Source of the DNA: Microthyrium microscopicum
Lineage: Eukaryota
Length of the DNA: 20,000 nucleotides
NCBI GenBank assembly: GCA_010405405.1
Contig: MU004231.1
Coordinates: 1,978,645 to 1,998,644, forward strand
Reading direction: 5' to 3'
Under the pieces are notes generated by a model. The model worked only from the letters and a program-made list of their open reading frames with translations. It was not told the DNA's origin and searched no databases. A program made the translations under genes and the position numbers. Below are positions 1-20,000 of the stretch, piece by piece. Every line of letters starts with the position of its first letter. The stretch's first letter is position 1.

Positions 1-949
1 CGTTTGTTCATCGCCATGTCGATCTCTTTTCATGAAGGCATTGGAGGAATGATCAGAAGCGTCATCAATAGAAGTTCGTTCATGTGATTTGATCCAGTCA
101 ATCATCAAGGTGTTCGGTCGGGGAAGAAAAGCTTCTCCAAAATCTGACAAGCAGAGAGTGTTTCGTTGACCATCATTGCCGTTACTGACTACAGTTGACG
201 CCGAAGAAACCACACTGGCTGCAGAATTCAAACAGGTGCGTAGGTGATCCAATTGTTTGAATTGTGCGGATTGTTTCTTTGATGTACGCTCCTTGTTTCC
301 AAGCTGGGTGTTTGATTTCATCTTTTCTTCCATGGAGGCTAGTCGATAGTTCATGTCAATAGCCAGCTCCTGTATCGTTGAATTTACTTGATTCAAAGTT
401 GGGAGCCCAACCTGAAGAGCTTCGCTAGTAGAAGCTTGGTGCCATCTAGTGATTGTTTGGTCAGCAATAGATTCTGGGGTCACTGATATCTGTGTCAAGG
501 ACTTACAACAATGTCGTTTGTAAGGAAACCTGAATTGTATCTTTGTAGGAGCGTATCTGCTGCTGATATACAGCAATTTCATGGGTGGCCGCATGGAGTC
601 TAATGTGCTTTCGCGTAGAGTCTAAGAGATTCACATGCTTGTTGACGCGTACAATTGTGGTCTGAAGCGACTTGAGCGTTCCTTCCGCATCATCCAAAGA
701 CGTTTGAAGATGGCGCCAATGTGAGGTTAGACTTCCCTCAGATCTTAGAGAACTCTTTACTTTCGGTTCATCGATTATGTCTGTAACTTGGTCCAATATC
801 TTCTCGAAGGCCGTGACTTCTTGCAGAAGCCCATTAATTGCTGTCCCAACTAATTTCGTGCCGCTAATAAATTTCTTCAACTCCCAGCCGAGCCCGCTGC
901 AGAGGCTTGCAATGGTGAGCGACGAGACGACAATTGATAAGGGATCCAT
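1..949 (-). CDS. 5' part of a gene encoding a fungal N-terminal (HeLo-like / STAND-associated) helical domain protein; exon 1 949-507, intron 506-446, exon 2 445 to window edge
   Basis: The N-terminus MDPLSIVVSSLTIASLC...LLQEVTAFEKILDQV...IAVYQQQIRSYKDTIQVSLQT matches the 'MDPLSI' pattern typical of fungal N-terminal/HeLo-like domains. The 61-nt intron has a GTAAGT donor, GCTGAC branch site and TAG acceptor. Splicing gives LWHQASTSEALQ...LRTCLNSAASVVSSAST...SDFGEAF...MIDWIKS, open to base 1. The family call is from recall of the motif, not a database search. Confidence 0.75.
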
Positions 950-1659
950 GAGTTGGTAAGTTTATCAAAAATTCCATTGCAAACAGATCATTCCAAGTGA
1001 TGAAAGCTGGACTACACTTGATGAACAAGAACGTTTGACGCAAGAATCAGATTTAGTTGAACTTCTCCTTAGCTCAAAAGTTAATGATCATCTCGAAGAT
1101 AGTGGAGCCGCTACTCGAGGCGCTATAGATAGCGCGTAAAGGCTGGATGGCGGCCCGCGCCTCGATCTAGGCTGTTTTGGGATGTTTATGTTTCAGATTG
1201 CTGCATGTCGAGCGTTCAGCGCTTGTTTAAGCTCTGCCATTTGCGCTTGGCTTTGCGGCGCCTTGGGTCCTGCGAGGCGATCATTCACTCACTCATTCCT
1301 AATGGGCCAAAATGCCATCAGCCGACTTGCTTTCAAGCTTTACTGCAAGCCTACCCAGAACAGAATTGTGTACTTGGTGCTAATGGCGATCGCTTAGAAA
1401 GTAGAAGTACTTCCTAGTAAGATGTCTTAGATATGGTCTTTATTGGCCAGTCAGACAGGTGCCGTGCTTATACAGACTCTAACAAAACTAAAGTTTTTCT
1501 CTATCACCTATTAGTGCCTGTTTATGCAGCTTTATCATGTGCTGTGGTTGACCTCCAGAGTTCCTCGTCTTTCGCAACATACTTCAGCTCTGGCAGAAGC
1601 GCAACAGTGTAACTTATACATCTAGACAAAACCGGATCGCAAAAGCTCAGAAAACGAAA

Positions 1660-3758
1660 ATGGCTGGCCAGCCTTCTATCTCTGAGCAAGCAAGCCCACA
1701 ATCTCCTACCAGTCCAATACCTGAGCCGGATACTCAATCAATAACCTCAACTCGTCAATACTCTGATAATGGTCTCAGCATAAACAACGACACATATTAT
1801 GCAGAAACAAAATCTTCAGGCTCTTTTCAGACTTTCTATATCGCCTCGCAGCAACGAAAGTCTATAGGATCAAAACCTTCCGAATCATCTGCACAAAACC
1901 ATGAACACTTGGAGATGGACCAACCCGGCTTCTGGAGAAAATGGTTCCTAGAATGGTGGGGAATTGAGCTTCTGAGCTTAGGCTTCAGCGCACTATCTAT
2001 GGTTATTATCCTGATAGTACTTGCGCAATATGATGGCAAAGGACTACCTCAATGGAAACTCGGCATTTCAATAAATGCTTTTATATCCATCTTTGCTGGA
2101 TTTACCAAATCGGCTCTTTTACTCCCCACTGCACAGGCTCTTGGCCAGTTGAAATGGAATTGGTTTACCAAATCTCGCCCTATGCACGATTTTGAGCTCT
2201 TGGACAGTGCTAGTCGAGGGCCTTGGGGCGCTCTACTCCTCCTTGGTCGCATGAAAGGAATGTGAGTTACATCTTTGTTAGGTTCGTTCTTTAAAGAGTT
2301 GACTAATTCCTTCAAAGTACACTGGCGTCCATTGGGGCTGCTATAATTCTGCTTTCTGTACCGCTTGATCTTTTCTTTCAACAAATAGTGCAGTTTCCTA
2401 CGGTCTGGATTGTATCTGGGGATGCAACCCTCGCTCGGACAATCTATTACAACCCGGTTCCAAATGAATACTATGTACAGGACGATACTGTTTACTCGCC
2501 AGATCCTACTACTGATTCTGCGGTTGAACCACTTATTTGGTCAACGGGCAATCCTCAGCAAGTTCGTTCCAGCTGCCCCTCTAGAAGATGTACGTTTGAA
2601 CCGTTTGAGAGCCTTGGGGTGTGTAGTTCATGTATCGAACTACCCGACTTACTCAAATTTGGTGTTCGAAATGTTGTTGACAATTGGTCTGCGGATTCGG
2701 TGGCTAACCCAAACTTGGATAATCTCACAAACACGCCATCTGTCGGATGGTATTTGGAAGCACCTGGTCAAGATCCGATCCTGATGGCAGGATATTCTTA
2801 TCAGTCGAATGATACCTTAACTCCCAAGTCCATCCTCAGAGGAAGGATTGAACCCATGCGGGAAATGTTCACCAGACAAGCAAGATTCCCCGGTGGGACC
2901 ATCAACTTTCACAACATTACAAATCCATTGGCAGACTTCCTCATTGCATTCAATCTGGGAATTTTAGGTAGCTCGGATAGTGGGATATTTAATCAGACGC
3001 CCGTTGTTCACGAATGCGCTCTGTATTGGTGTGTACAAACCATACAGGCTCGCTTGGAGGGCGGGATCATTGCTGAAAACATCACTGCCACCCGCCAGCT
3101 TGTTTCAAGCCACGCTGATGATCCGTGGGACCCGGATACTAAGACGTTTCTGACAAATTTCACACTCACAAAGCCTGACTTACAGAACCCGAAGGGAGCG
3201 CTATTAAACTTCGGAGTCAGCAATATCACAACTCGCACAACGATCCAGGTTTCAGAAATATTCTCTCCTTCTAGCTGGACAGAGTTCAATGGTGACACTA
3301 CGATGGCGAAAGTGAATTGGAGAGGCAACCCATTCTACAATCGTCCCGTTGCAAATTCAGCGAACCCATGGAGCAGTCACAACGATCCAGTCGCGCATGT
3401 TGCAGCGATTGCTGAAGAGATGAGCAAGGCAATGCGGAACACTCCCCAAGGAGCGACTGATACATACGATCTTGTGATTGGAAAAGCATGGGAAGAACAG
3501 ATCCGAGTGCATATTATATGGGCTTGGATCGTACTGCCAGCGGTGCTAATGGCTATAAGTTTTGTTTTTCTGGCAGCGACAATGGCTCGAAGTTCAAGAG
3601 ATGATTTCATTGGAATTTGGAAGACTTCGGCGTTAGCAATCTTGTTCAACGGTTTTGGGGATGATGTACAGAGGAAGATAGGAGGCTCTTCTACGGAACG
3701 TTTAGGACAAGCCAAAAGAACGGCTAAAGATTTGACCGTCAGATTAGAAGAGGACTAG
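1660..3758 (+). CDS. DUF3176-family multi-pass membrane protein, paralog 1 (680 aa; exons 1660-2261, 2318-3758)
   Basis: Family motifs LGQLKWNWF, DSASRGPWG, DLFFQQIV, CPSRRC...LGVCSSC, ECALYWC and WKTSALAILF are present. The 56-nt intron GTGAGT...GACTAAT...AAG joins the two ORF-track ORFs in frame (KG-I-TLASIGAAII). There are four hydrophobic segments. Confidence 0.85.
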
Positions 3759-4322: not shown

Positions 4323-6485
4323 ATGGCCCACCTTTCTGTTCAGAGTCAGACTGTTCTAGATGAGCATCTCTCCTTATCCCCAAGGACACCAGATTTAGGT
4401 CAATTCCCTTCGCCAGTCAATTACGGATCAGTCACACCCACGTCAGAACATCATCCTTTTTCAGAAAGGAGTTCGACCCAATTCCAAAAATCCTTCGTGG
4501 AGAAGTTCCAGAATACGTCGGCAAACTTCACCTTCAACTCCAAAGGAGACGAACAATTATCACAAAGTTCGGCAAGCCATACCGTCGGAAGTCGACTTCA
4601 GCGAGAAATTGAGGATGGTTGGCTATGGGAAGCTCTCAGCTGGGTGATAAGTGCGGGCTGTATGCTAGCACTAACTGTTCTTCTGGGGCTTTATAACAAC
4701 AAGCCTTTACCGGCAAGGTGGCCTTCTGGCATCAGCCTGAACGCCGCTATATCTGTACTTTCTAGTATCGGAAAATATGCTCTCTCAGTCCCACTGGAGA
4801 ACTCGCTTGGCCAGCTGAAGTGGATCTGGTTTCGAAGCAAAAAGACAAAAAAATTGATCGATCTAGAAAGATTTGACGAAGCAAGTAGAGGACCATGGGG
4901 TGCTTTTCTTCTACTGTGGCACATCAAAGGAAAGTAAGTGTTGAGCGATTCAACGATCCTTATACTTGTTGCTAAAACGAGGAACAGAAAACTTGCCTCG
5001 TTCGCCGCCGTAATAACCATCTTATCTCTGGCAATGGATCCCTTTTTCCAACAAATTGTTGCATATCCGCAAAGGCCAGGCGAATTCGGTAAAAGCACGA
5101 TTACGAGAGCCGTAAAGTTCTTCACTCACGAAAACCTCGAGTACGCCAATGGAGGAAACTATAGTATTTCAGATGAGAGTATGTGGAGTGCTATGGAAAG
5201 CGCATACTTCGGTGACGGTAAAGAGTCAAAAATTGACGCATTCTGCCCTACATCAAACTGCCAATGGCCAGAATTCCAGACTTTGGGAGTTTGCAGCAAA
5301 TGCCATGACGCCTCCGAGCTGCTTCAATTTGGATGCATGCCAGAACGAGGGGAGTGGTTGACCCAGAGAAGCACAGCAATGCTGGGAATCAATCAAACAA
5401 TCAGTACTGCACCAGTCCTATCTTGCGGATGGTTCTTCAATGCCAGCTCTGAAGATCGTATGCTGATGAGTGGATATGTCTTGGATAATACCACATCGCC
5501 CCCAAGTCCTGGAGAGGCTCTTTTCATACGCTCTTTAGCTACTGCTACACCTGCAGATGCTGACAACGTCACTTACTGGGATCGATCCTACTATTACAAG
5601 AATGAGTCAAATGCCTTGCCATTTTGGGACTTTCTGGTTGTGATGAACAAAAACGTATCTTCGGTGTATCTACATGAACGCCCAGAGGCTGCTGAATGTG
5701 TTCTGCAATGGTGCGTCAAAAACATCACTGCGTCGGTCATCAACGGAGAGTACAAAGAGGAGATTGTCTCGACATTCATCAACGAGACTCAGGTTGGCTA
5801 TCCAGCTCGCCACGAATCCAAATGGAGGCCGCCTGGAACTTCATACATGCATGGTGTAGCAGATGTTATCATCGAGCCCCCAGGACAGGATGAGCAATTC
5901 TTCGTCCCAGACTATACGGTGTTCCAGACGGTCAACCCTTTCTACTGTTTTATTCCATCATATATGACAGTGGCAAATATCACAGCAAATCCACTTATGC
6001 GAGTTGATAACAAGAATACAGGTGGAATGGACAATTCCTACATACTGAACTTCAATCTCACTGAATGGTCAAAACCAAGCAACATATCCGTCTGGTCGGA
6101 CATAATGGCAACTGCAGTTACAAACACTATTCGAAGTTTTCCAAACAGTTCTGAGCCAGTTCCCGGTTTCGGAGGACTGGAGACTTATATTCACATTCAG
6201 TGGGCTTGGATATCACTGCCGGTGATCATATTATTTGGCACGGCTATGTTACTAATCTGTGTCATTATCACCGGACCAACAAAACAAGAAGGAGGAGTGT
6301 GGAAAACCTCTCCGCTTCCAATGTTACTTCATGGACCCAGTTCACAGCTGCGAGCAGATTTTGGAGATGCATGGAGTATGTACGATATGAGAAGGAAGGC
6401 CAGGCAGGTGGATGTCGTCCTCAGGGAAGAAGTAGATGGATTAAGGTTTCATCCTGATAAGAATGGAAGTTATGCTGAGAAATGA
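4323..6485 (+). CDS. DUF3176-family multi-pass membrane protein, paralog 2 (702 aa; exons 4323-4933, 4988-6485)
   Basis: Motifs LGQLKWIWF, DEASRGPWG, DPFFQQIV, CPTSNC...LGVCSKC, ECVLQWC and WKTSPL are present. The 54-nt intron GTAAGT...GCTAAA...CAG is at the same codon position and phase as in paralogs 1 and 3. Confidence 0.85.
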
Positions 6486-7767: not shown

Positions 7768-10469
7768 ATGGTCGATTCTCAATCAAGCAACATTAAACAG
7801 TTTATTCGAAGTGGAAAGTTCTCAAAACGTCTCAACCTGAACCGACCAAGAGCACCAGAGCCATCCCTTTCCACCATTCACTCCGCGGGGTCAGACGAAG
7901 AAGATGGCAATTCCACTGACATTGAGGATTTTCCGGAGGAGAAGAATGGAGTAGTGAAGGCGGTAGCAAGGGAGGACAATGCAGCCGATGGCTCTGAGTC
8001 TACGAACAATCCACAAGGTGGAAGGTTAGTCACTGGTCAAAGACCACTTCTATCTGGTGTTCTTTCCAATATCGCCAACCTCGCCAACCGGAGGTCAAAT
8101 ACCAGTCGGACCTCTACAGCAAGCCGGTCAAGTCGGACATCAATGTCCACACGTTCTTCAATTGCTTCTTCTACTGGCGGGCTGCCAACCATAACAGAAA
8201 TCCCTCCTCTGCCCGGGCTTGTTTCCGATCACGGTTCATTGCCGCCAACATCAGAACCACCCTCAACTCCGCCTTTAGAAGACCACATTATGCCGGTAAT
8301 ACCTCCCCATCCAGGTTTCACCCCAGTCCAGCAATGCGATAACAGCGACACTCATTCCCAAGGTTCAACACTTGTGGGATCTCCACCTCGTCACAACGGA
8401 AACTCTCAGATACCTCCATATTCTATTTCTGATGTATTTGCAAACTCACCACCTCCTCCTATGCCCTCATGGCCATTGCCATCAGATACAATGAGCGAAA
8501 AGAGTGGCAAGAGCTCTCTACCTTTAACAGCTTCGCCTCACTCTTCGCACTCCTTTGCCTCAACTCCAGCCTATAGCCCACCCTCATATTGTCAGCCTTT
8601 TGGGGATAGTAATGCCCCTGGCTCAAGATTCTCATGGCATGTTACACCAGTCGATCGGGCTCGAAACTGGTTTACTATTTGGTTCGTAGAATGGTGGGCC
8701 TTTGAAATCATTAGCTGGCTGTTTAGTGCAGTTTGCATGGCGATTATCTTGGGCGTTTTGTTCCGTTATAACAACAAAGAAATACCCCATTGGAGAATCG
8801 GCTTTACTCTTAATGCTTTCATTTCAATACTCTCGGGGTTCGCCAAATCTGCTCTTCTTCTTCCGACGGCAGAAGCGCTCGGACAACTCAAATGGAATTG
8901 GTTTACCAAGAAATCTAAAGCCATGCTAGATTTCGAAGTCCTTGACAGTGCTAGTCGCGGACCTTGGGGCTCTATGGTGTTGCTCGCACGAACTAAGGGA
9001 GTGTAAGTCTGACATGGTTGACAACCTACCGCCGATATGCTAATGTACTTTACAGAACCCTTGCCTCAGTTGGTGCAGCCATTATCCTGCTCTCATTACC
9101 GCTTGATCTATTCTTCCAACAGATTGTCCAGTATCCCAACGTAATGGTCGCACTGGGAAATTCAACTCTCACAAGATCGGTGTATTATGACCCTATTCCA
9201 GAAACAGTCTTGCAAAGCGGCTCTACGATCACGAACCCGAACGCGCAAATGGTCGCCAACCTGTGGGAGATGATAACTGCCAAGCAGCCTTTGCTCACGT
9301 CGCCTAACTTCACTTGCCCAACCAGCCAATGCAATTTTCAACCATTTGATACCCTTGCGATATGTAGCTCATGCACAGCGGTACCGGGCCTTCTTGAGTA
9401 CGGCTGCAAGAATGCTACCAATGAGTGGATGGCTGACGCATCTACTGACCCCGACGACTTTACTAATACAACTGCCTGCGGATGGTATCTCAATCCTCCA
9501 GGACAAACTCCCATCTTGATGAATGGATATGCCTACAACGCTTCTACTCAAACGCCTGGAGAAATCCTTGTTTCAAGAATCGTGCCATTGAGAGACATTT
9601 GGACTCGAAAACCCGTCCTTCCCAATGCCACTATCAACTATGGGGACATTATCAATCCGTTGGGCGATTTCATTATTGCGTCATCTCCGGATGCCAAGTC
9701 TGTTCTTTCAAACAAGCCTCCTGAAGTTATCGAATGTGCAATGTGGTTTTGCGCGCAAACACTCAGGTCTCAGATTAAAAATGGACAGCTCTCAGAGCAG
9801 ATTCTGAAGACTCAAGTAGTACCTCCAACGAATACTGGTAATCCTTGGAAGACATCTGCTTGGTACGACAACTCTTTCAACCTTACTCTTCCAGACTCCC
9901 GCAGCTCAAGTGGCTCATCTGTGTATGGAACTGGGAATTGGACGGGCCGAACCACTTTGGACATAGTACAAGATTTCGCTCCTTCGACCTGGACCAGCCA
10001 ATCCAGCCAGGATTCAACAATCGCAGGGAAATTCAATTGGAGATCAGGTACGCCAGACGTGAAAACGATTCCTTTGGAGACCAGTCCCTGGATCACGACT
10101 TCGAATGTTACCCATAGCGTGACAACAATGGCAGAAAGCATGTCCGCTGTCTTGAGACGAACTTCACATGGCTACTCAAATCAATTTGAGTTTATCCAAG
10201 GAATAGCCTACGACGTCAGGACTCACGTTCAGATACGATATTTCTGGATCATCCTACCTGCATGTTTGCTACTCTTCAGTTTTGTTTTTTTAATGGCGAC
10301 AGTCCTCAAGAGCTCGAAAGATGATAAGAAGATTGGCGTTTGGAAGAATTCGGCACTCGCGGTTCTGTTCAATGGTCCATCTGATGACGTTCAAGACCGA
10401 ATGGGCAGTCAGCTCAAGTTAGGCTCTGCAAGGGAGAAGGCACGGAATATTCGAGTGACGTTGGATTGA
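7768..10469 (+). CDS. DUF3176-family multi-pass membrane protein, paralog 3, with long Ser/Pro-rich N-terminal tail (882 aa; exons 7768-9002, 9056-10469)
   Basis: The first in-frame ATG is at 7768 in good context (ACCATGG). Motifs LGQLKWNWF, DSASRGPWG, DLFFQQIV, CPTSQC...LAICSSC, ECAMWFC and WKNSALAVLF are present. The 53-nt intron GTAAGT...GCTAAT...CAG splices in frame (KG-V-TLASVGAA). Confidence 0.85.
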
Positions 10470-11019
10470 TAAACCAATGGCTGCTTGCTTTCATCCGAAA
10501 TTATGTAATACCCATGAGACATGTTTATACGTTCAAATATTATACTTCACCTTTCTTAATTACGGAGTACATCATGAGACCATATTGACCTAGGCGAGTC
10601 CTCGGTTTACGGAATGTCTTGCAACGTCGAGGTTCCGATTATGGACTCAATTCTATTAACAATTAGTAGAAACACATTGACACACCTTGACCGCCGAGGA
10701 AATAGGTAACCGTCTGAAAGTCAGGAAAAAGGCCAGGCTTGCTTTTCTACCAATAAAATCTGCCAAGCGTACGGTCATCGAATACGGCAAGTCAATCTGC
10801 ACCGGCACCAGCAGCAAATCACTACGGTCATGCTAAGAGAGGGCTGAGGTGTTCAAGATATCTCGACCTGGTACGCCAGGCCGAAATGTAGCATATAATT
10901 GAAGTAATGAGTTGCCTCGTTCCATTCCTAATTTGAGACCAGTCCACTATGACAGAAGAAATTTTTGAGCTAAAAGATGTATCCCAACCAAAAGTATATA
11001 CAGAAATTTGTTGACATGA

Positions 11020-11075
11020 AAGAATCGAAGAGTCGAAGAATTGAAAAGTCGAAGAATTGAAAAGTCGAAGAGTTA
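11020..11075. repeat. Degenerate 8-bp minisatellite (~7 units, consensus AARARTYG) downstream of the KEP gene stop
   Basis: Read directly: aagaatcg aagagtcg aagaattg aaaagtcg aagaattg aaaagtcg aagagtta. Confidence 0.7.
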
Positions 11076-11220
11076 AAGATGTGTACAGTGAACGGAGGTT
11101 GGTCGAAAATGCTGGACTCGAGGAGCTCCTGGCTCTTAAGTCTGAATGTATAAGCTGCTGACACGATTAGCTCAATCAATGGTTGACAAGGCAGTATCAT
11201 CTGAAAACTCACGATCGTCC

Positions 11221-11654
11221 TCAGTATCCGCTTTGCATGGCATCTTTACGCTTCTCCTTGTAGCCACTTTGCATGGCATCTTTACGCTTCTCCTTGTAGC
11301 CACTTTGCATGGCATCTTTGCGCTTCTCTTTGTAGCCACTTTGCATGGCATCTTTGCGCTTCTCTTTGTAACCACTTTGCATAGCATCCTTGCGCTTCTC
11401 CTTATAGCCACTTTGCATGGCGTCTTTGCGCTTCTCTTTGTAGCCGCTTTGCATGGCATCTTTGCGCTTTTCCTTTACAAAGTGCTCTGTCTGCATATAT
11501 GTCAGTATGCATGGTTCGTATGTCTGGACTTTCAACTTACGCCTTCACTTCTGACAGCCATCGGAGCTATTGTACTGATCGAAGAGACAGGGGCGGCACT
11601 AGCTGTCCAGGCTAGAGCAGCGGACAATACCAGAAGAAGATTGACTTGAACCAT
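11221..11654 (-). CDS. Secreted Kex2-processed repeat protein (KEP) / fungal peptide or RiPP precursor, 127 aa; exon 1 11654-11541, intron 11540-11491, exon 2 11490-11221
   Basis: Spliced protein: MVQVNLLLVLSAALAWTASA|APVSSISTIAPMAVRSEG-TEHFV-(KEKRKDAMQSGY)x7-stop. It has a hydrophobic signal peptide with an A-S-A cleavage motif. The 50-nt phase-0 intron has a GTAAGT donor, ACTGAC branch site and CAG acceptor. Every repeat has a KR dibasic site, and all differences between repeats are synonymous in this frame. Confidence 0.92.
11224..11475 (-). repeat. 36-bp x 7 coding tandem repeat (KEKRKDAMQSGY)
   Basis: Seven contiguous 36-bp units, consensus AAR GAR AAG CGY AAR GAY GCY ATG CAA AGY GGH TAY on the minus strand. 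Confidence 0.97.
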
Positions 11655-13171: not shown

Positions 13172-13360
13172 ACTCGAGTTAGTATAGTCGAGTACTAGTA
13201 CTAGTACGGCTAGTATAGAATTATTTTAATACTTACTCAACTAGACTAGTCCAATCAAGATCCAGGACTAGTACTAGTACTATACTAGTCTAGAAATATA
13301 TAATAAATACTCTACTAGTACTCAAATACTAGTACTAGTATTACTAGTATACTAGTACTA
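13172..13360. repeat. Cluster of short palindromic TACTAGTA/AGTACT-type repeats, likely RIP-mutated subterminal repeats of the transposon
   Basis: Many overlapping copies of agtactagtac / tactagta lie immediately inside the GC-to-AT transition. Confidence 0.6.
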
Positions 13361-14806
13361 GTTTTATATATAGATTAGGGTTAATATTATAGGGTTATTT
13401 TTATATTATTTAATTCGGAATTTTACGTAGATTACAATGGTATTATTAGTTTTTTAATAGCTAGTCTTATTCTATAGTTATTATACTTTAAACATAAAGT
13501 TATTTAATTATATTATATTTTTAAAGGTTATTTAGTTATATAGTACTTAATATTATAAATTACTTAATAATATTTTAGATTTAGGGTTCTAGATTTATAA
13601 TACATACGAAACTATAAAAATTAGACCTAAATATACTAATAATTAGTTTAAATACTAATAATTAGAAGTTAAGAGTATAAAACAATTAAGAAAAAGAGAT
13701 AAATCTTAAAAATTTATATAAATAACTTAATAGTAGTAGATTTTAAGATAAATATATAAATTATTATATATTTAGATTCATTAAAGTATAAGGAAAACAG
13801 CCCTAGAGTTAGTTTTTTAATAAGTCGCTTATATACTAATATATAGTAGTATTTAAGAGTTTTTAATAAATATATTAATAAAAGTTTAAGGTTTATATTT
13901 TAATACTAGATAAATAAGGAGTATTATAGGTTATTAAAGATCTTATATATATATTAGTATTATATATATACTATAATCTAGATTTAAGATCTTATCTAAG
14001 CTTAATAAAGATAAAAAATAATAATAAAGATAATAATTAATAATAATAATATTCTAAAAAGAAATTATATTTAAGACTTTAAACCTATATTATAGTAAAG
14101 ACCTTAGTAGTAAGTATATATTAGTCTCAACTATATTATATAAATATACTAAAATAGCTATATAATCTTAAATCTAAGATTATATTTAAGATTTATAAAA
14201 TAAGAATTTAAAATATATATCTTTTAAATAATTATTTTATAACTTAAATATAAGTAGCTACATAGTAGTAATATATATAAATATATATACTAAAATATTC
14301 TAGATTTTACGATCTATCTAATGCTATAGGTCTCAAAGCTTATTCAAGTCTAGTTTTAATACTATTACTAATAATACTATTTTATTTTTAATAATTATAA
14401 TTTACTTAATAAGCTAGAATAAGGGTTTTGCTATAGTATACCTAAAGTAAAAGGTATAACTATTATAATTATCTATATTTTAATTTATTTTATAGTATAC
14501 TAACTACTAATACCTATATTTAAGTAATAAAATTCTATATATTCTTAAAATCTTTATTTATTTATATTATATTTAATTCTTTTATTCTACTCTTTATAAT
14601 ATACTATTAACGTCTAATTTCTATATAAATTCTAATGCTACTAACCTTATATCCTATAAACTACTATCTAACCCTTTATTCTAATTTAAATAGTCTACTT
14701 TCATTTAATACAAATACTTATTTTAAGTTAAAACAACATTTTTTTATTTCTTTTATTTAAATACAATCCTAACTCTACTAACGCCTAAATAACAAATATA
14801 AACAAT

Positions 14807-17152
14807 TTAACTCCTCTAATAATTACTTTCCTCCTCGCTATCACTATCACTATCACTACTATCCTCTTCTAGTAAATATAATAAAGACTTTTATAGCTCT
14901 TTAATACTAGGCATTTGCCAGTTTTTTAACTAAATAATCCATTTAGAAGTTTCAGCTAAAAGCTTATTTCTATCATTAGAAATAATATTACCGCCAATAC
15001 TAAATATACTTTCAGCACTAGCTAAAGTAACAGGTATTATTAAGTATTTCTTAGCTAAGTAAAATAAAACAAGAAATTCTATTTGTTTTATATTCCAGTA
15101 TTTTAAAAGAGATATTTTAGGATCAGTAACGTGTACTTCTCTTAAATAACGAACAAATTCCTCTTCTATAGGAGTATTCTCACTAATTAGAATAAAAAAC
15201 TCGTTTTATTATTTATTTAGAATAATAATAAGAATATTACTATTTTAAGTACCTAAAGAACTAGGATTTAGCTTTCTAAAAGCTATATAATACTCGTCTT
15301 CAAATAGTTTAGATATATTACTTAGAATATCATCGTAGTAATATAATATACTATAAGGCATATTTTTAAAATACTTTGTTTTATATCTAGGATCTAGAAT
15401 TAATACTAGAATAAAAGGTTTTAACTTTTTTACCTATTCTAGATTATAAATCTTACAAAGATAGTACTCTTCTAGCTTTTTAATACCTACTTTTATAGCT
15501 TTAACAAAGTATTTACGCTCTAGATAATTAGCTAATAAAATAGATCTAACAGACATTAAAAATTCAAGCATCTTTTCTTCTAATTTATTAAATAAAGAAT
15601 AAATATATAAAAGCGTTCAATTTAATATAGTATAAATTTGCCCTTATAGAGTAACTATAGGTACATCAAAAAACTTAAGAATATCTTTTAAATTCTTTAG
15701 TACTAACTAATTAGCTTTATTAAAAGTAAACTTCTTTTTAAAGTTTTTATCCTTAGTATTTATAAAGACATATTCAACGCATAATTTAAGCTTAAAAAGA
15801 CACTCTAAAGTATAATACATAGAGTTCCATCTAGTATTATTATCTATAGGTACTTTAGTAATTTATACCTCTTTAGGAATTAATCCTTATTCAAGATAAA
15901 GCTTTCTAGATAATTCAAAGTTTTTTTAATATTCTATCTCGTATTTAATACCCTTTACTACTCTTTTAAGTCTACCTATAAGACTTTTAGAAGCTATATT
16001 ATCTAGAATAGCTTCTAGTTCAGCTAGTATAGTATTTACATTAATAAGAGTAGCTCTTTCTCTAGCAGATTTTATTTCTTTATCATAATTAACTAAAAAT
16101 ACTCTTAAAACAGTTTTAGCAACTAGATTAATTATATGCGCAACACATCAAATATCATAGAAATCTACAGTAGAGCCCTATAGTTCTTTTTCAGCTTTTA
16201 GCTATTCAATAAGTATAGTATTATTACTAGCGTTATCTCACAAAAAACTAATAATATTATTAAGACTTAAATCAAAAGACTTAATAATTCTATCAAATAC
16301 ACTATAAAGATAAATACTAGTATAATTAGAAGTTAATCTTTCAAATCCTAATAGCCTATACTATATTTTACAATCTTTACTAATATAAACTACTATAACA
16401 CCTAAAAAGGCATACTAATTAGAACTACTAGTCCAAGCATCTAGCGCAATTACAAAATAATCATTTCTAGACACTACAGCTTTTAATTCACGCTTTAGCT
16501 TCTCTTTAGCAGTATCATAAATAGAATATAGTAAATTCCTTATATTTTTACAATTAATTATAGGACTATAACAATTATAATACTTTAGTAGTTCTTTAAA
16601 AGAATTAGAACTATAAGCATTAAAAGAAAGGTTATTTTCAACTATAAATTTTACTATTAAGTGCATAGCACCTTCGTTAGTAAATTCCTAATTAGTATTA
16701 GCTCTTACTCGTTTATTACTAGTTATAGCTATAAAAAAAGGGGTATTATTACCTTTAGATTTAATTCTAGCGCGATATTTCCTAATAGTCTCTTTATTAG
16801 TTTCATCGTTCTTATTTAAAGTAACCATTTTATAGGCTGCTTTATAGTATTTAATAAAGTTAGAGGTTTAAAAACCTTCTAATTTAACTATAAGACTATA
16901 GGAACAAAGAGTATATCTAACTCTAACTTCTCTATGCTTAGTAACATCAATAGGAAGTAGTTCTCTAATAAATAGCCCATTAGAAAGAGCATAAGCTTTA
17001 GAATTTCTATCATTTAATTAAAAGTGCTATTTATTATACTTATAATAAGCATAACTAACATTACTAAAGATATTAGACGCACTATCTCCAGGCACTATAG
17101 AATTAGCATTTAATACTTAGCTAGCTCCTAGCATATTATTACTATCCATCAT
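14807..17152 (-). pseudogene. RIP-inactivated hAT transposase (~780 codons)
   Basis: Minus-strand translation gives ordered hAT motifs: a degenerate BED finger (Y[C]TLC...SNFIKY[H]YKAAY[H]), FIVENNLSFN, ALDAWTS (catalytic D), DNASNN, CVAHIINL (CxxH), NTRWNSMY, ILDPRYK, the C-terminal dimerisation domain LKYW...LAKKYLIIPVTLASAESIFSIGGNIISNDRNKL, and an acidic SDSDSDSEEE tail. Many premature stops are present. Confidence 0.92.
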
Positions 17153-17533
17153 TTTAAAGAATAGTAAACTTCTAAAAGAAAGAAATCTATAGAATAATAC
17201 TTAAAGCTAGATAAGCAAAAGTAAAGAGACAGTTCTTATTATTTATATTAATAGATAGATAGTATAAAATAACTAGTCTTAAATACCAAAACTAAGTATA
17301 GCAAAAAATAAATAAGAAAATATTTTTTTTTAATTTTAGAGATTTTAAAGATTTTTAGATATTTTTTTAGATATAAGTAAATCTAATAGCAAAATTACTA
17401 GAACAAGAGTAAACTAGATACAAGATAAATAATCAAAGTAAATAGAAAAGCTATAAAGCTATAATTGAAATAAAAGCTTAAAAAAATACTAGAAAAATAG
17501 TAAATAATCTAAATATTCTAATAGTAGAATTAG

Positions 17534-17824
17534 CTAAATAAACTAATACTAAAGAACAAGAGCAAATAAAAGCTAGAGGCTATAAAAGCTAATCCTAAGA
17601 ATAGAATAGTATAGAAATATATTATATAGCAATAGCTTTTATATAAAAAAACACTTAAAAAGTAGTTTCTAACTAGAATTTCTAGTAAAATACTAACTAA
17701 ATAAACTAATGCTAAAGAGCAAAAGCAAATAAAAGCTAGAGGCTATAAAAGCCTAACCCAAAAAGGGAATAGTATAGAAATATATTATATAGCAATAGCT
17801 TTTATATAAAAAAACACTTAAAAA
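17534..17824. repeat. Imperfect direct repeat, ~128-bp units at 17534-17661 and 17697-17824
   Basis: Both copies read ctaaataaactaat.ctaaaga..caa.agcaaataaaagctagaggctataaaagc...gaatagtatagaaatatattatatagcaatagcttttatataaaaaaacacttaaaa. Differences are mostly G/A and C/T transitions. Confidence 0.85.
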
Positions 17825-18631
17825 AAAAAGTAAAAAAGTCAAAAAATATAAATACTATATAGTAAGTATAAAAACAAGATTTAGGTAGTAAGAAGAAGTA
17901 GACTAGCTACAAATAATACAGAGAGTAACAGCTATAGATAGCAGTCTAGCTCACAGGGGGGGGGAATGTCTAAAAAACCAAGAATTCTAAGTAAAATCCG
18001 CCTCTATAAGTATACACACAACGCTAGATTAACACATACTAATCACCATCATATTCAGCAGGTTTAGAGCTACCAAACGCCATTAAGATTACCTCTTTTA
18101 GGCCAGTATTGCAAAAGTTATAGGTAATAATAATAAGGAGTAATATTAAAACTATAAAACAGTCTATTATAATAGAGTAAACGCATAGTAATAAACACAG
18201 TTTCAAGAGGCTAGACCCCATAAAACAACGCTAAACAGGAGTATAAACACCAAGAGTTTTAATAGTAAATACATTATTAACCCTTTTAATAATACCATTT
18301 ATATAGCTTGTTTACTTTATAACAATATTACCCCTTATTATTATTATACATAACTTTCGTAATACTAGCCCAAAATAGGTAATCTTTACGGCGTTTAGAA
18401 GCGCTAAACCTACTAAATACAATAGTACTATTTAGGTCTTCATCACGAGTCGTTATTATATATATATCCTTCAGTTACCCACAAAGAACTTACTTTTCAA
18501 CAATCCACCCATCACTTCTACTTTCCTATTAAGGACTACATTTCAGTAGTATCTAGAAGTAGCCTTAGAGGCTATTTCTACTTATCTTTTACTTTATTCT
18601 ATACAATATCTCTTAGTAAGAATTCTTTTTC

Positions 18632-18655
18632 TTTTTTTTTTTTTTTTTTTTTTTT
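18632..18655. repeat. Poly(T) tract, 24 nt
   Basis: Read directly. Confidence 0.9.
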
Positions 18656-18777
18656 ACTTATTAACTTTCTAGTCTCTATACCCAATCTAGTATACTTTTA
18701 TACTAGTTTTTAGTACTATTTAAATTAGTAAATTCTTCTCTATTAAATAGTATAGCTTTTATATTTTTATTAACCTC

Positions 18778-19788
18778 ATAGCGTAAGTTATCCATTCCTT
18801 TTTAACTTTTTTTTTTTTTACTTATTATTTATTATAGAGACGTAGCAACCGCTAGATATTTCAAAAGTAAGTCCCCCCTACTCCTCATTATAGCCTCAAC
18901 TAATTTATATTTTTTTATAGAGCTTTCCCTCAACAATTCCCATATCAAACTACAAAGATTCTTAAATAAATTCTTAGGTTACAAAAACGCCCTTTTATCC
19001 AAAAATAAATTAAACTATAATTCTTAGATACTACAACGTAAATAGGCAGGAAATCAGGAATTTAGATATATTATTTATATTCACCAAGAGTATAATCTAC
19101 GACGTGTATATCTCAATTTCTTACCCCTTTTAAAAGGAAGAAACGTTAAATCTTTTATAGTTTATTTCGTCTTAGAAATTAGGCAAGTTGATTACAAAGC
19201 TATATTCTTACATAATAGTAAGGAAACTACTATTCCTATTACTTACAAGCCTATTGCTATCTAGTCTTCTCGTAGTTCTAAAATAGAACTATCTTTACCT
19301 AAATTGATAATTAACTAGAAAGGTCTCAAAGCTAATTAGTCAGAAGCTACTTTTAAACCAGATCCTATAACACCTAGGTAAGCCCTTTATACTTCTTTTT
19401 ATTTAAATTATATACTAACTCTTTATAGTGGTAAAGATTATATACAAAAAGTATATAAATCTAACCCAAAATAGAATTCTAAGCTAAATGCTTCTCACGC
19501 TACAGAACGTTAAATTAAGCATTAAAAGCTACTAAATAACTATGCCCTAGCGAAGAAGGAACGAGTAGCTAAACAGAAGCTAAAGCATCTTCTTTAGAAG
19601 GTTAATAATATTACTTTTATTTACTTTATTTTACTAATTTTTAATAGAAACTAAAGCTTAAAAAAGCTATAGATTCACAAGAATCTAGCCCTACCCCTAG
19701 TACTACTTCTAATTCTACGTACATAGATAACGCTAGTATTAATACTTCTAATCTAGATATAGATTACGACCCAGATCGTTTCTTTTAG
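18778..19788 (+). pseudogene. RIP-inactivated five-exon gene of unknown function (~267 aa); exons 18778-18782, 18838-18866, 18921-19377, 19429-19600, 19648-19788
   Basis: Four 47-55-nt introns have GTAAGT/GTAAGT/GTAAGC/GTTAAT donors and TAG acceptors, and introns 2-4 have ACTAAY branch sites. Intron phases join into one continuous frame: [M]ADVATARYFKKLSLNNSHIKLQRFLNKF...DIDYDPDRFF*. The start appears as ATA (ATG after RIP). The 151-codon exon 3 has only five stops, all TAG. Confidence 0.7.
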
Positions 19789-20000
19789 TTAAATTTCTAT
19801 ATTTTTTCATTAAAGTTAGGATTTCCTTACAAAATTGCTTACATAATTAAAAAAAAATATCTACTATCTTCTAGAGCTAAATTTTCTTATTTAAACGCTA
19901 TATTTATTATATCTTAACTCTTAGTATTACCTATAGTATTTAATAAATAAGTTTTTTTAAAATTAATAATAAATATAAAAAATAAGAAGTAAATAAGAAA

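Follow-up and report, generated by a model that had tools for sequence, protein, structure and literature searches.

A repeat peptide precursor of the KEP class linked to genes for DUF3176 membrane proteins in Microthyrium microscopicum

RESULTS AND DISCUSSION

Gene content of the precursor locus

We identified a small gene encoding a precursor with seven peptide repeats in the Dothideomycete Microthyrium microscopicum. The gene lies in a window of 20,000 nucleotides (the whole stretch of DNA that was analysed), at one end of an island of genes, about 23 kb long, that is bordered on both sides by AT-rich blocks with a RIP signature (Table 1). Within the island follow genes for a UBX protein, a GNAT acetyltransferase, a DUF3176 protein, a precursor of 66 amino acids, a protein with PigL_N and WD40 domains, three more DUF3176 proteins and, finally, the seven-unit precursor. 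The block at the left border (L003) is similarly AT-rich, and DUF3176 loci elsewhere in the genome (C2:2.85 Mb, C16 and C4:0.31 Mb) likewise lie within a few kb of such blocks.

Table 1. Features in the analysed window (coordinates are window positions).
Feature	Position	Strand	Remarks
DUF3176 gene 1	1660..3758	+	exon-2 identity 40% with gene 3
DUF3176 gene 2	4323..6485	+	exon-2 identity 25-26% with genes 1 and 3
DUF3176 gene 3	7768..10469	+	convergent with precursor, 752 bp stop to stop; intron about 9003-9055
Precursor non-coding exon 3 (3' UTR)	11025..11154	-	piece of an X1 contig; end approximate, as contigs cannot fix transcript ends
Precursor intron 2 (3' UTR)	11155..11212	-	58 nt, GT..AG, starts 8 nt past the stop codon
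Precursor coding exon 2	11221..11490	-	TEHFV, then seven units KEKR-KDAMQSGY (11475-11224), stop TGA
Precursor intron 1	11491..11540	-	50 nt; GTAAGT start, CTGAC branch site, GCAG end
Precursor coding exon 1	11541..11654	-	114 nt, 38 aa: predicted signal peptide and short pro-region
AT-rich block with RIP signature	13250..20000	.	right border; TpA/ApT 1.48 against 0.65 in the island
hAT transposase remnant	14930-15205		inside the right AT-rich RIP block

Two other gene products of the island are of interest in their own right. The gene combining a PigL_N N-terminus with a WD40 propeller sits within the DUF3176 array (window 503-961 (-) and L002:8201-10000 (-)), and PigL_N-type N-terminal domains occur in fungal non-self-recognition proteins. 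In the public model P0126 (847 aa, L002:2970-6602 (+)) the GNAT ORF and the fourth DUF3176 gene form a single gene, through either an erroneous merger in the model or a true fusion; the acetyltransferase could acetylate something related.

The precursor is a spliced gene

Splicing of the two coding exons gives a frame of 127 amino acids on the minus strand, while the frame of exon 1, if unspliced, reaches a stop two codons inside intron 1. The basis for splicing is the joints in assembled contigs. Two contigs of run X1, which is classed as RNA by a guess, none of the runs with the locus being recorded as RNA, carry the joint 11490/11541 with exactly 11491-11540 missing and with CT..AC at the ends of the missing piece. 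The joint 11154/11213, which corresponds to the 58-nt form of intron 2, is present in contigs of both X1 and X3, and a minor form of 55 nt with an alternative acceptor (joint 11157/11213) is also seen in contigs. With two introns in the X1 contigs, the precursor transcript has at least three exons. We regard the precursor as a real spliced gene with practical certainty.

A preliminary description of this DNA, made from the sequence alone, had proposed a hidden two-exon precursor and had suggested looking for a transcript across the intron 11540-11491. The X1 joint would be that of such a transcript, and the two coding exons stand as described, to which the intron in the 3' UTR has to be added. 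The signal peptide and pro-region that splicing was said to restore were likewise borne out: the N-terminus encoded by exon 1 is hydrophobic, A-S-A/A-P closes that stretch, and our own rule, based on hydrophobicity and small residues, predicts a signal peptide at about residues 1-20 (11654-11595).

Some 60-odd other GT/GC-AG pairings were dropped in favor of the observed joint, and an ORF of 167 amino acids on the opposite strand (11146-11649) was rejected as a shadow; its amino acids change from unit to unit. A 16-bp tandem repeat (3.2 copies, window 11020-11073) lies at the end of the precursor 3' UTR. One X1 contig of 3388 bases has an end at 10943 and extends to the left beyond the compared stretch, which fits a transcript of the convergent DUF3176 gene. 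Contig pieces from X2 and X3, runs that bear other organism labels, are nearly all 99+% identical to the locus at a depth of 3-8, a measure that does not rank expression, and include no orthologous cores; they may be carry-over.

Repeat units and predicted peptides

Exon 2 contains seven identical KEKRKDAMQSGY units and the TGA stop codon directly after the last, and TRF reports a period of 36 with 7.0 copies. No Pfam match in this exon exceeds the cut-off, and the repeats are accompanied by no other folded domain. The DNA of the units varies in nine columns, every one of them at a third codon position. All ten distinct variant alleles are synonymous, against 17 of the 108 possible single changes (naive P ~1e-8, which is overstated because most of the changes are transitions). 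Since the units differ by synonymous changes only, we judge the peptide sequence of the repeat to be under selection, and the repeat not to be a neutral minisatellite.

The processing enzyme Kex2 cuts after KR, and Kex1 strips basic residues from the C-terminus (PMC9769878). The genome contains one match to the Kex2 P-domain, in a frame of 891 amino acids, and three DPPIV_N loci of the DPPIV/Ste13 type. K-x-K-R is a good Kex2 site, and KE is thus perhaps mainly recognition sequence. By analogy with the known pathway, the predicted products are six KDAMQSGYKE peptides and one KDAMQSGY. The preliminary description had listed the same products; the repeat layout on which they depend is present, and their cleavage and secretion are deduced from the pathway. 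We consider it very probable that the precursor is processed to peptides.

With its signal peptide (by our own rule), at least three repeats, dibasic sites and lack of any other domain, the precursor resembles the KEPs, or Kex2-processed repeat proteins, as these are treated in the parts of the literature covered here: PMC6339444 (Le Marquer 2019), PMC7329392 (Umemura 2020) and PMC9769878 (Vogt 2022). Seven identical units separated by KR conform to the KEP layout of at least three similar units with KR, RR or KK between them, and the predicted product of ten amino acids falls within the commonest KEP size class of 9-24. The precursor is a new member of this class. It is unlike the known KEPs in having a core with no relative in the searches run and in being linked to DUF3176 genes. 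According to PMC7329392, 74% of the catalogued KEPs lack a DUF3328 partner and are not labelled as pheromones either.

Relatives of the peptide were sought in several collections. Of 3105 candidates with lengths of 48-156 amino acids, none is a homolog at E<=0.01. A search of 1.84 billion representatives returned 75 matches. All are generic repeats that agree with the unit at no more than 7 of 12 positions, and none is a precursor that has both a signal peptide and a similar core between KR sites. The Atlas search with the precursor gave a best score of 0.85 and no Pfam consensus, and 13 pattern matches in viral contigs included no relative. The precursor is single copy in the genome. We found no paper with MQSGY in the open-access literature searched, and neither MQSGY nor DUF3176 occurs in the supplements of PMC7329392 (three files) or of PMC6339444 (four files, the sequence table not among them); Table S2 of the former lists accessions without sequences and does not include Microthyrium. 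The novelty claimed for the core in the preliminary description agrees with these searches, in which no known peptide was matched. Exact-sequence look-up in the protein collection retrieved none of six small precursors (the exon-2-only ORF and five linked ones), so that such genes appear often to be uncalled and a blank search says little.

DUF3176 proteins encoded beside the precursor

The preliminary description did not mention the linkage to genes for DUF3176 membrane proteins, which we regard as the most informative feature of the locus. The four DUF3176 genes of the island form a subfamily of their own, scoring 407-615 bits against its profile where others reach at most 130. The pairing is not one to one, as four DUF3176 paralogs accompany two precursors in the island. 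The second precursor, at L002:7570-7770 (+) about 2.2 kb to the left of the window, is predicted to be secreted and has 66 amino acids, with two similar cores around KKR; the fourth DUF3176 gene is 1 kb upstream of it. An apparent intron just past its stop codon recalls that of the seven-unit precursor.

The product of DUF3176 gene 3 is 100% identical to P0123, a protein of 882 amino acids in which PF11374 is the only Pfam match. Its N-tail, about 300 residues long, is rich in Ser and Pro and has no signal peptide. Of the four membrane helices three are clear, and the fourth is weaker and placed within DUF3176 by inference. An ectodomain of about 370 residues is located between the last two helices and contains nine of the eleven N-glycosylation sequons. 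In the subfamily alignment, mean pairwise identity is 66% in TM1-TM3 and 50-52% in the C-tail and falls to 34-36% in the ectodomain, which is thus the least conserved folded part of the protein. Over 39 rows there is no conserved His column and no HxxHC; the invariant residues of the ectodomain are E225, E246, R366 and Y157. A variable ectodomain, a conserved membrane part and the lack of His/HxxHC together would suit a receptor better than a luminal enzyme.

The predicted model of the ectodomain is beta-rich (pLDDT 94, pTM 0.91). Compared with the PDB, it gave no Foldseek match at E<=0.001 and a best VIA match with Z 3.7 (rmsd 5.6, 64 aligned). A longer model matched helix pairs only, and the best sequence match had an E of 0.015. 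Weak matches of this kind to a predicted model show neither a new fold nor a different fold for the ectodomain. Complex prediction with the gene-3 ectodomain and a 32-residue fragment of the repeat scored 0.00 twice, in runs made without an alignment and with controls not folded, and counts neither for nor against binding. In the open-access literature searched, DUF3176 is named in one work, in another context.

Recurrence of the linkage in other fungi

A metagenome scan with the DUF3176 subfamily alignment yielded ten loci, of which eight are distinct and seven informative: L033 and L042 are identical over 538 bases, L039 and L040 have the same ORFs, and L037 has only 362 downstream bases. 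At five of the seven (L034, L036, L038, L041 and L042) a convergent gene encoding a signal peptide and R/KR-delimited repeats lies within about 0.5 kb. The core is QEFFDNDVG at L034 (gene at 2271-2804 (-)), APGxLGNGGSDGGY at L036, where the core, like KDAMQSGY, ends in GY, here before KR, SASWTPKKGAGSGISG at L041, and xxGDFGPVN at L042; L038 has two copies of a ESQPGFVEGGALE unit. These linked cores share no sequence and no reactive residue, and their charge ranges from acidic to basic. A sixth locus, L035, has a convergent secreted precursor of 55 amino acids with a single core, and the locus L039/L040 has an unrelated gene and no linked precursor.

The DUF3176 proteins at the metagenome loci are mostly 30-50% identical to one another and to those of the window. 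Those of L033, L034 and L037 are 65-76% identical, and the loci, which are few, are not fully independent. A detector of repeat precursors was positive at five of the seven loci (5/8 with L037) and in 4 of 240 control windows, with a Fisher P of 3.5e-7 that is optimistic, the detector being post hoc and the controls coming from fetched stretches of the Microthyrium genome rather than from the metagenome organisms. Two of the four positive controls are the precursor on contig C9, which is itself tail-to-tail with a DUF3176 gene.

Two details of these genes may be recorded here. The L034 core has Gln first and Gly-Lys-Arg last, the pattern of pyroglutamyl, amidated animal neuropeptides. In the L036 and L038 precursors there is, on a reading of the sequence, an apparent intron past the pro-region, as in Microthyrium.

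In Verruconis gallopava, the accession number of a subfamily member, KIW05857.1, adjoins that of KIW05856.1, which Table S2 of PMC7329392 gives as a KEP of type 0 without DUF3328. This is the only one of five comparable subfamily accessions to adjoin a catalogued KEP; KIW04791, KIW01028, TID18948 and QDS77460 have no catalogued KEP neighbour in that table, and three accessions of Venturia inaequalis, one further V. nashicola accession and those of Parastagonospora were left out as not comparable. The DUF3176 protein of L035 is 58-69% identical to two of those four accessions and to a Venturia member. A neighbour with a single core, as at L035, would escape a catalogue of repeats, and this may explain the four misses.

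DUF3176 genes of other subfamilies have a clear repeat precursor within 10 kb at one of their twelve loci in the genome. This precursor, on C9 (L009:5188-5952 (+)), is predicted to be secreted and contains five DPHHAAAKGAKKGKGAK-type units. Two UstYa/DUF3328 genes lie upstream of it, and the tail-to-tail DUF3176 gene, which belongs to another subfamily, lies downstream; C9 is thus a candidate RiPP cluster with both types of partner. On C14 (L026:5800-6130), five copies of a unit of about 70 nt, with no open frame, lie 6 kb away from a DUF3176 gene; they may have arisen by duplication of exon-intron units in a small minus-strand peptide gene.

We found no link between KEPs and DUF3176 in open-access text (figures, e.g. 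Fig. 6 of PMC7329392, fall outside this scope), nor any report there of a KEP beside an adjacent membrane receptor. From the neighbourhoods above, the precursor is probably functionally tied to DUF3176.

Comparison with CWR-2

Atlas feature neighbours of P0123 are DUF3433, DUF8406 and an oomycete cluster (0.94-0.95). Its predicted model aligns with a DUF3433 cluster at TM 0.60/0.56 over 467 residues, with a feature score of 0.94. At the sequence level, hhalign of DUF3176 against four DUF3433 units from the genome, with only four sequences on one side, gave non-significant probabilities of 0.05% and 0.04%, and hmmsearch gave no match; the best alignment places the DUF3176 and DUF3433 regions in register. 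We treat the likeness as a lead from predicted structures and not as membership.

The DUF3433 protein CWR-2 of Neurospora crassa has eight helices and four extracellular domains, two of them small and two large; the large pair sets specificity in trans towards the linked secreted protein CWR-1 (PMC12135175, PMC9550227). CWR-2 consists of two four-helix units with DUF3433 (PF11915), whereas P0123 has one unit with DUF3176; the predicted layout of the latter (four helices, a small loop and a large ectodomain) matches that of one half of CWR-2. In both systems the gene for a secreted product is linked to that for a protein which passes through the membrane several times and whose extracellular domain is large and variable, an arrangement present in the window and at five to six of the seven metagenome loci. 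The secreted partners differ, however: CWR-1 is an AA11 monooxygenase, and that of the window is a short peptide in multiple copies. The PF11915 genes of M. microscopicum are on other contigs than the precursor locus. At L060:3614-6922 (+) and L061:2013-5820 (-) there are two genes of CWR-2 type, with DUF3433 units in tandem and ectodomains of large size; no AA11 neighbour is evident from the listed ORF starts. Nothing was found in the open-access literature that joins CWR-2 with Kex2 repeats.

A possible peptide ligand and its alternatives

We propose that signal peptidase would remove about 20 residues of the pre-pro-peptide, that Kex2 would cut after every K-E-K-R with Kex1 trimming R and K, and that six KDAMQSGYKE and one KDAMQSGY would be exported as linear, at most lightly trimmed peptides. 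These would be ligands of one or more of the neighbouring DUF3176 four-helix surface proteins, with the variable ectodomain binding the peptide and the conserved membrane and cytoplasmic parts relaying the signal. The two convergent genes would be inherited as a module in which the peptide differs between lineages, as one would expect of a signal of self, kin or density. The five of seven loci, with partners mostly 30-50% identical and cores that share no sequence, the Verruconis pair, the 66-aa precursor in the island, the conservation pattern and the DUF3433 likeness favor this reading; the single Verruconis case among five accessions, the one in twelve other loci, the four paralogs to two precursors and the lack of visible DUF3176-DUF3433 homology in sequence count against it, as do the small number of related loci and the post hoc detector. 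On balance we give a secreted ligand with linked DUF3176 surface sensors, with binding deduced from gene context, an even chance of being correct.

Alternatively, the DUF3176 proteins could be tailoring or escort factors of the secretory pathway that modify, trim or sort the peptide, as DUF3328/UstYa proteins do in dikaritins. The same linkage would follow, several DUF3176 copies per cluster resemble the 1.7 DUF3328 copies per KEP (PMC7329392), the invariant E225, E246, R366 and Y157 might serve such a role, and on C9 a DUF3176 gene lies in a cluster with both a KEP and DUF3328. However, the luminal domain would be the least conserved folded part of such a factor, it has no conserved His or HxxHC, the linked cores offer no common reactive residue, and the structurally similar DUF3433 family has a role in recognition. 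We consider tailoring unlikely.

It is similarly unlikely that the precursor is an ordinary stand-alone linear KEP whose neighbourhood reflects old synteny or a shared variable region, with no functional tie. Of 7878 KEPs, 6120 lack DUF3328 and 2560 are stand-alone (PMC7329392), and in Coprinopsis the knockout of six KEPs produced no phenotype (PMC9769878). Four of the five comparable accessions have no adjacent catalogued KEP, the island lies between RIP blocks, and a convergent gene pair could be kept by old synteny alone. Against this, orientation and short distance persist where the partners are 30-45% identical and the cores have been replaced, and five of seven loci contrast with 4 of 240 control windows.

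A peptide that acts as an antagonist or effector on other organisms or cells, with DUF3176 shielding the producer by binding in the manner of immunity, would show the same linkage and co-divergence, and KEP-derived peptides include toxins and effectors (PMC7329392). The peptide is, from its sequence, short, polar, about neutral and not amphipathic, however, and the charge of the linked cores varies from acidic to basic; we hold this reading to be distinctly improbable.

The preliminary description had pointed to dikaritins, in which Tyr is the cross-linking residue, and had likened the GY end to that of the asperipin-2a core (FYYTGY). In the dikaritin clusters (ustiloxin, asperipin-2a and phomopsin), as in the window, a Tyr-bearing KEP lies beside paralogous membrane-anchored proteins; the neighbours there are DUF3328 proteins, whereas in the island they are DUF3176 proteins without HxxHC, and no tyrosinase or transporter is present. 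A terminal aromatic residue of dikaritin type is a weak likeness, as Tyr occurs in 38.2% of KEPs without DUF3328 (PMC7329392). A dikaritin cluster would have a DUF3328/UstYa gene within about 15 genes. None of the genome's 22 UstYa/DUF3328 matches lies within 1.3 Mb (on this contig the nearest match is found at 0.67 Mb and the precursor at 1.99 Mb), none was found among the scanned flank ORFs, and the 16 tyrosinase matches all lie outside the precursor contig C2. The locus thus does not qualify as a dikaritin cluster, and the earlier hint is weak. That one of the 22 oxidases encoded elsewhere cross-links the core Tyr is very improbable, given a mean distance of 3.09 genes in the known cases (PMC7329392) and a contig without tyrosinase.

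Equally remote is the reading as a divergent mating pheromone of the alpha type, with Ste13 trimming the product to MQSGY(KE). The layout, similar to that of the MF-alpha and Ppg1/Ccg-4 precursors with an inferred Kex2/Kex1 route to a linear peptide, the single copy, the DPPIV/Ste13-type genes and the lack of a canonical two-Cys precursor by two narrow patterns (among the first 100 of 155 rows, and 16 of 16) are all compatible with it, but the core has neither the two Cys nor the PYGxPxG of Dothideomycete alpha pheromones (PMC6339444), no X-Ala or X-Pro directly follows KR, there is no reason why a pheromone should be encoded among DUF3176 genes, and its sensor is the GPCR Ste2, whereas the candidate sensor here is linked and not a GPCR. 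The trimming to MQSGY(KE) suggested in the preliminary description fits poorly, as K-D-A after KR puts Ala third rather than second and Ste13 could remove X-Ala only after loss of the Lys; the part of PMC10135057 covered here contains nothing on Lys at P1'.

Implications for KEPs and DUF3176 proteins

The presence of the KEP-DUF3176 arrangement in other fungi with entirely different peptides suggests an undescribed pair of peptide and sensor. Viewed apart from this context, the peptide would be one more stand-alone KEP. More tentatively, and at less than even probability, KEPs and DUF3176 proteins may form a widespread system of peptide signalling in filamentous ascomycetes that does not use GPCRs, in which a fast-changing peptide and a linked receptor of DUF3176/DUF3433 fold provide lineage-specific codes for self or kin. 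If this is true, orphan KEPs would gain receptors and DUF3176 its first function. Partner recognition by CWR-2 is called unclear in the Neurospora papers (PMC12135175, PMC9550227), and the ligand-sensor pair would offer a simple peptide model for recognition by CWR-2-like proteins. Each module comes with a peptide amenable to synthesis and a protein amenable to deletion or exchange.
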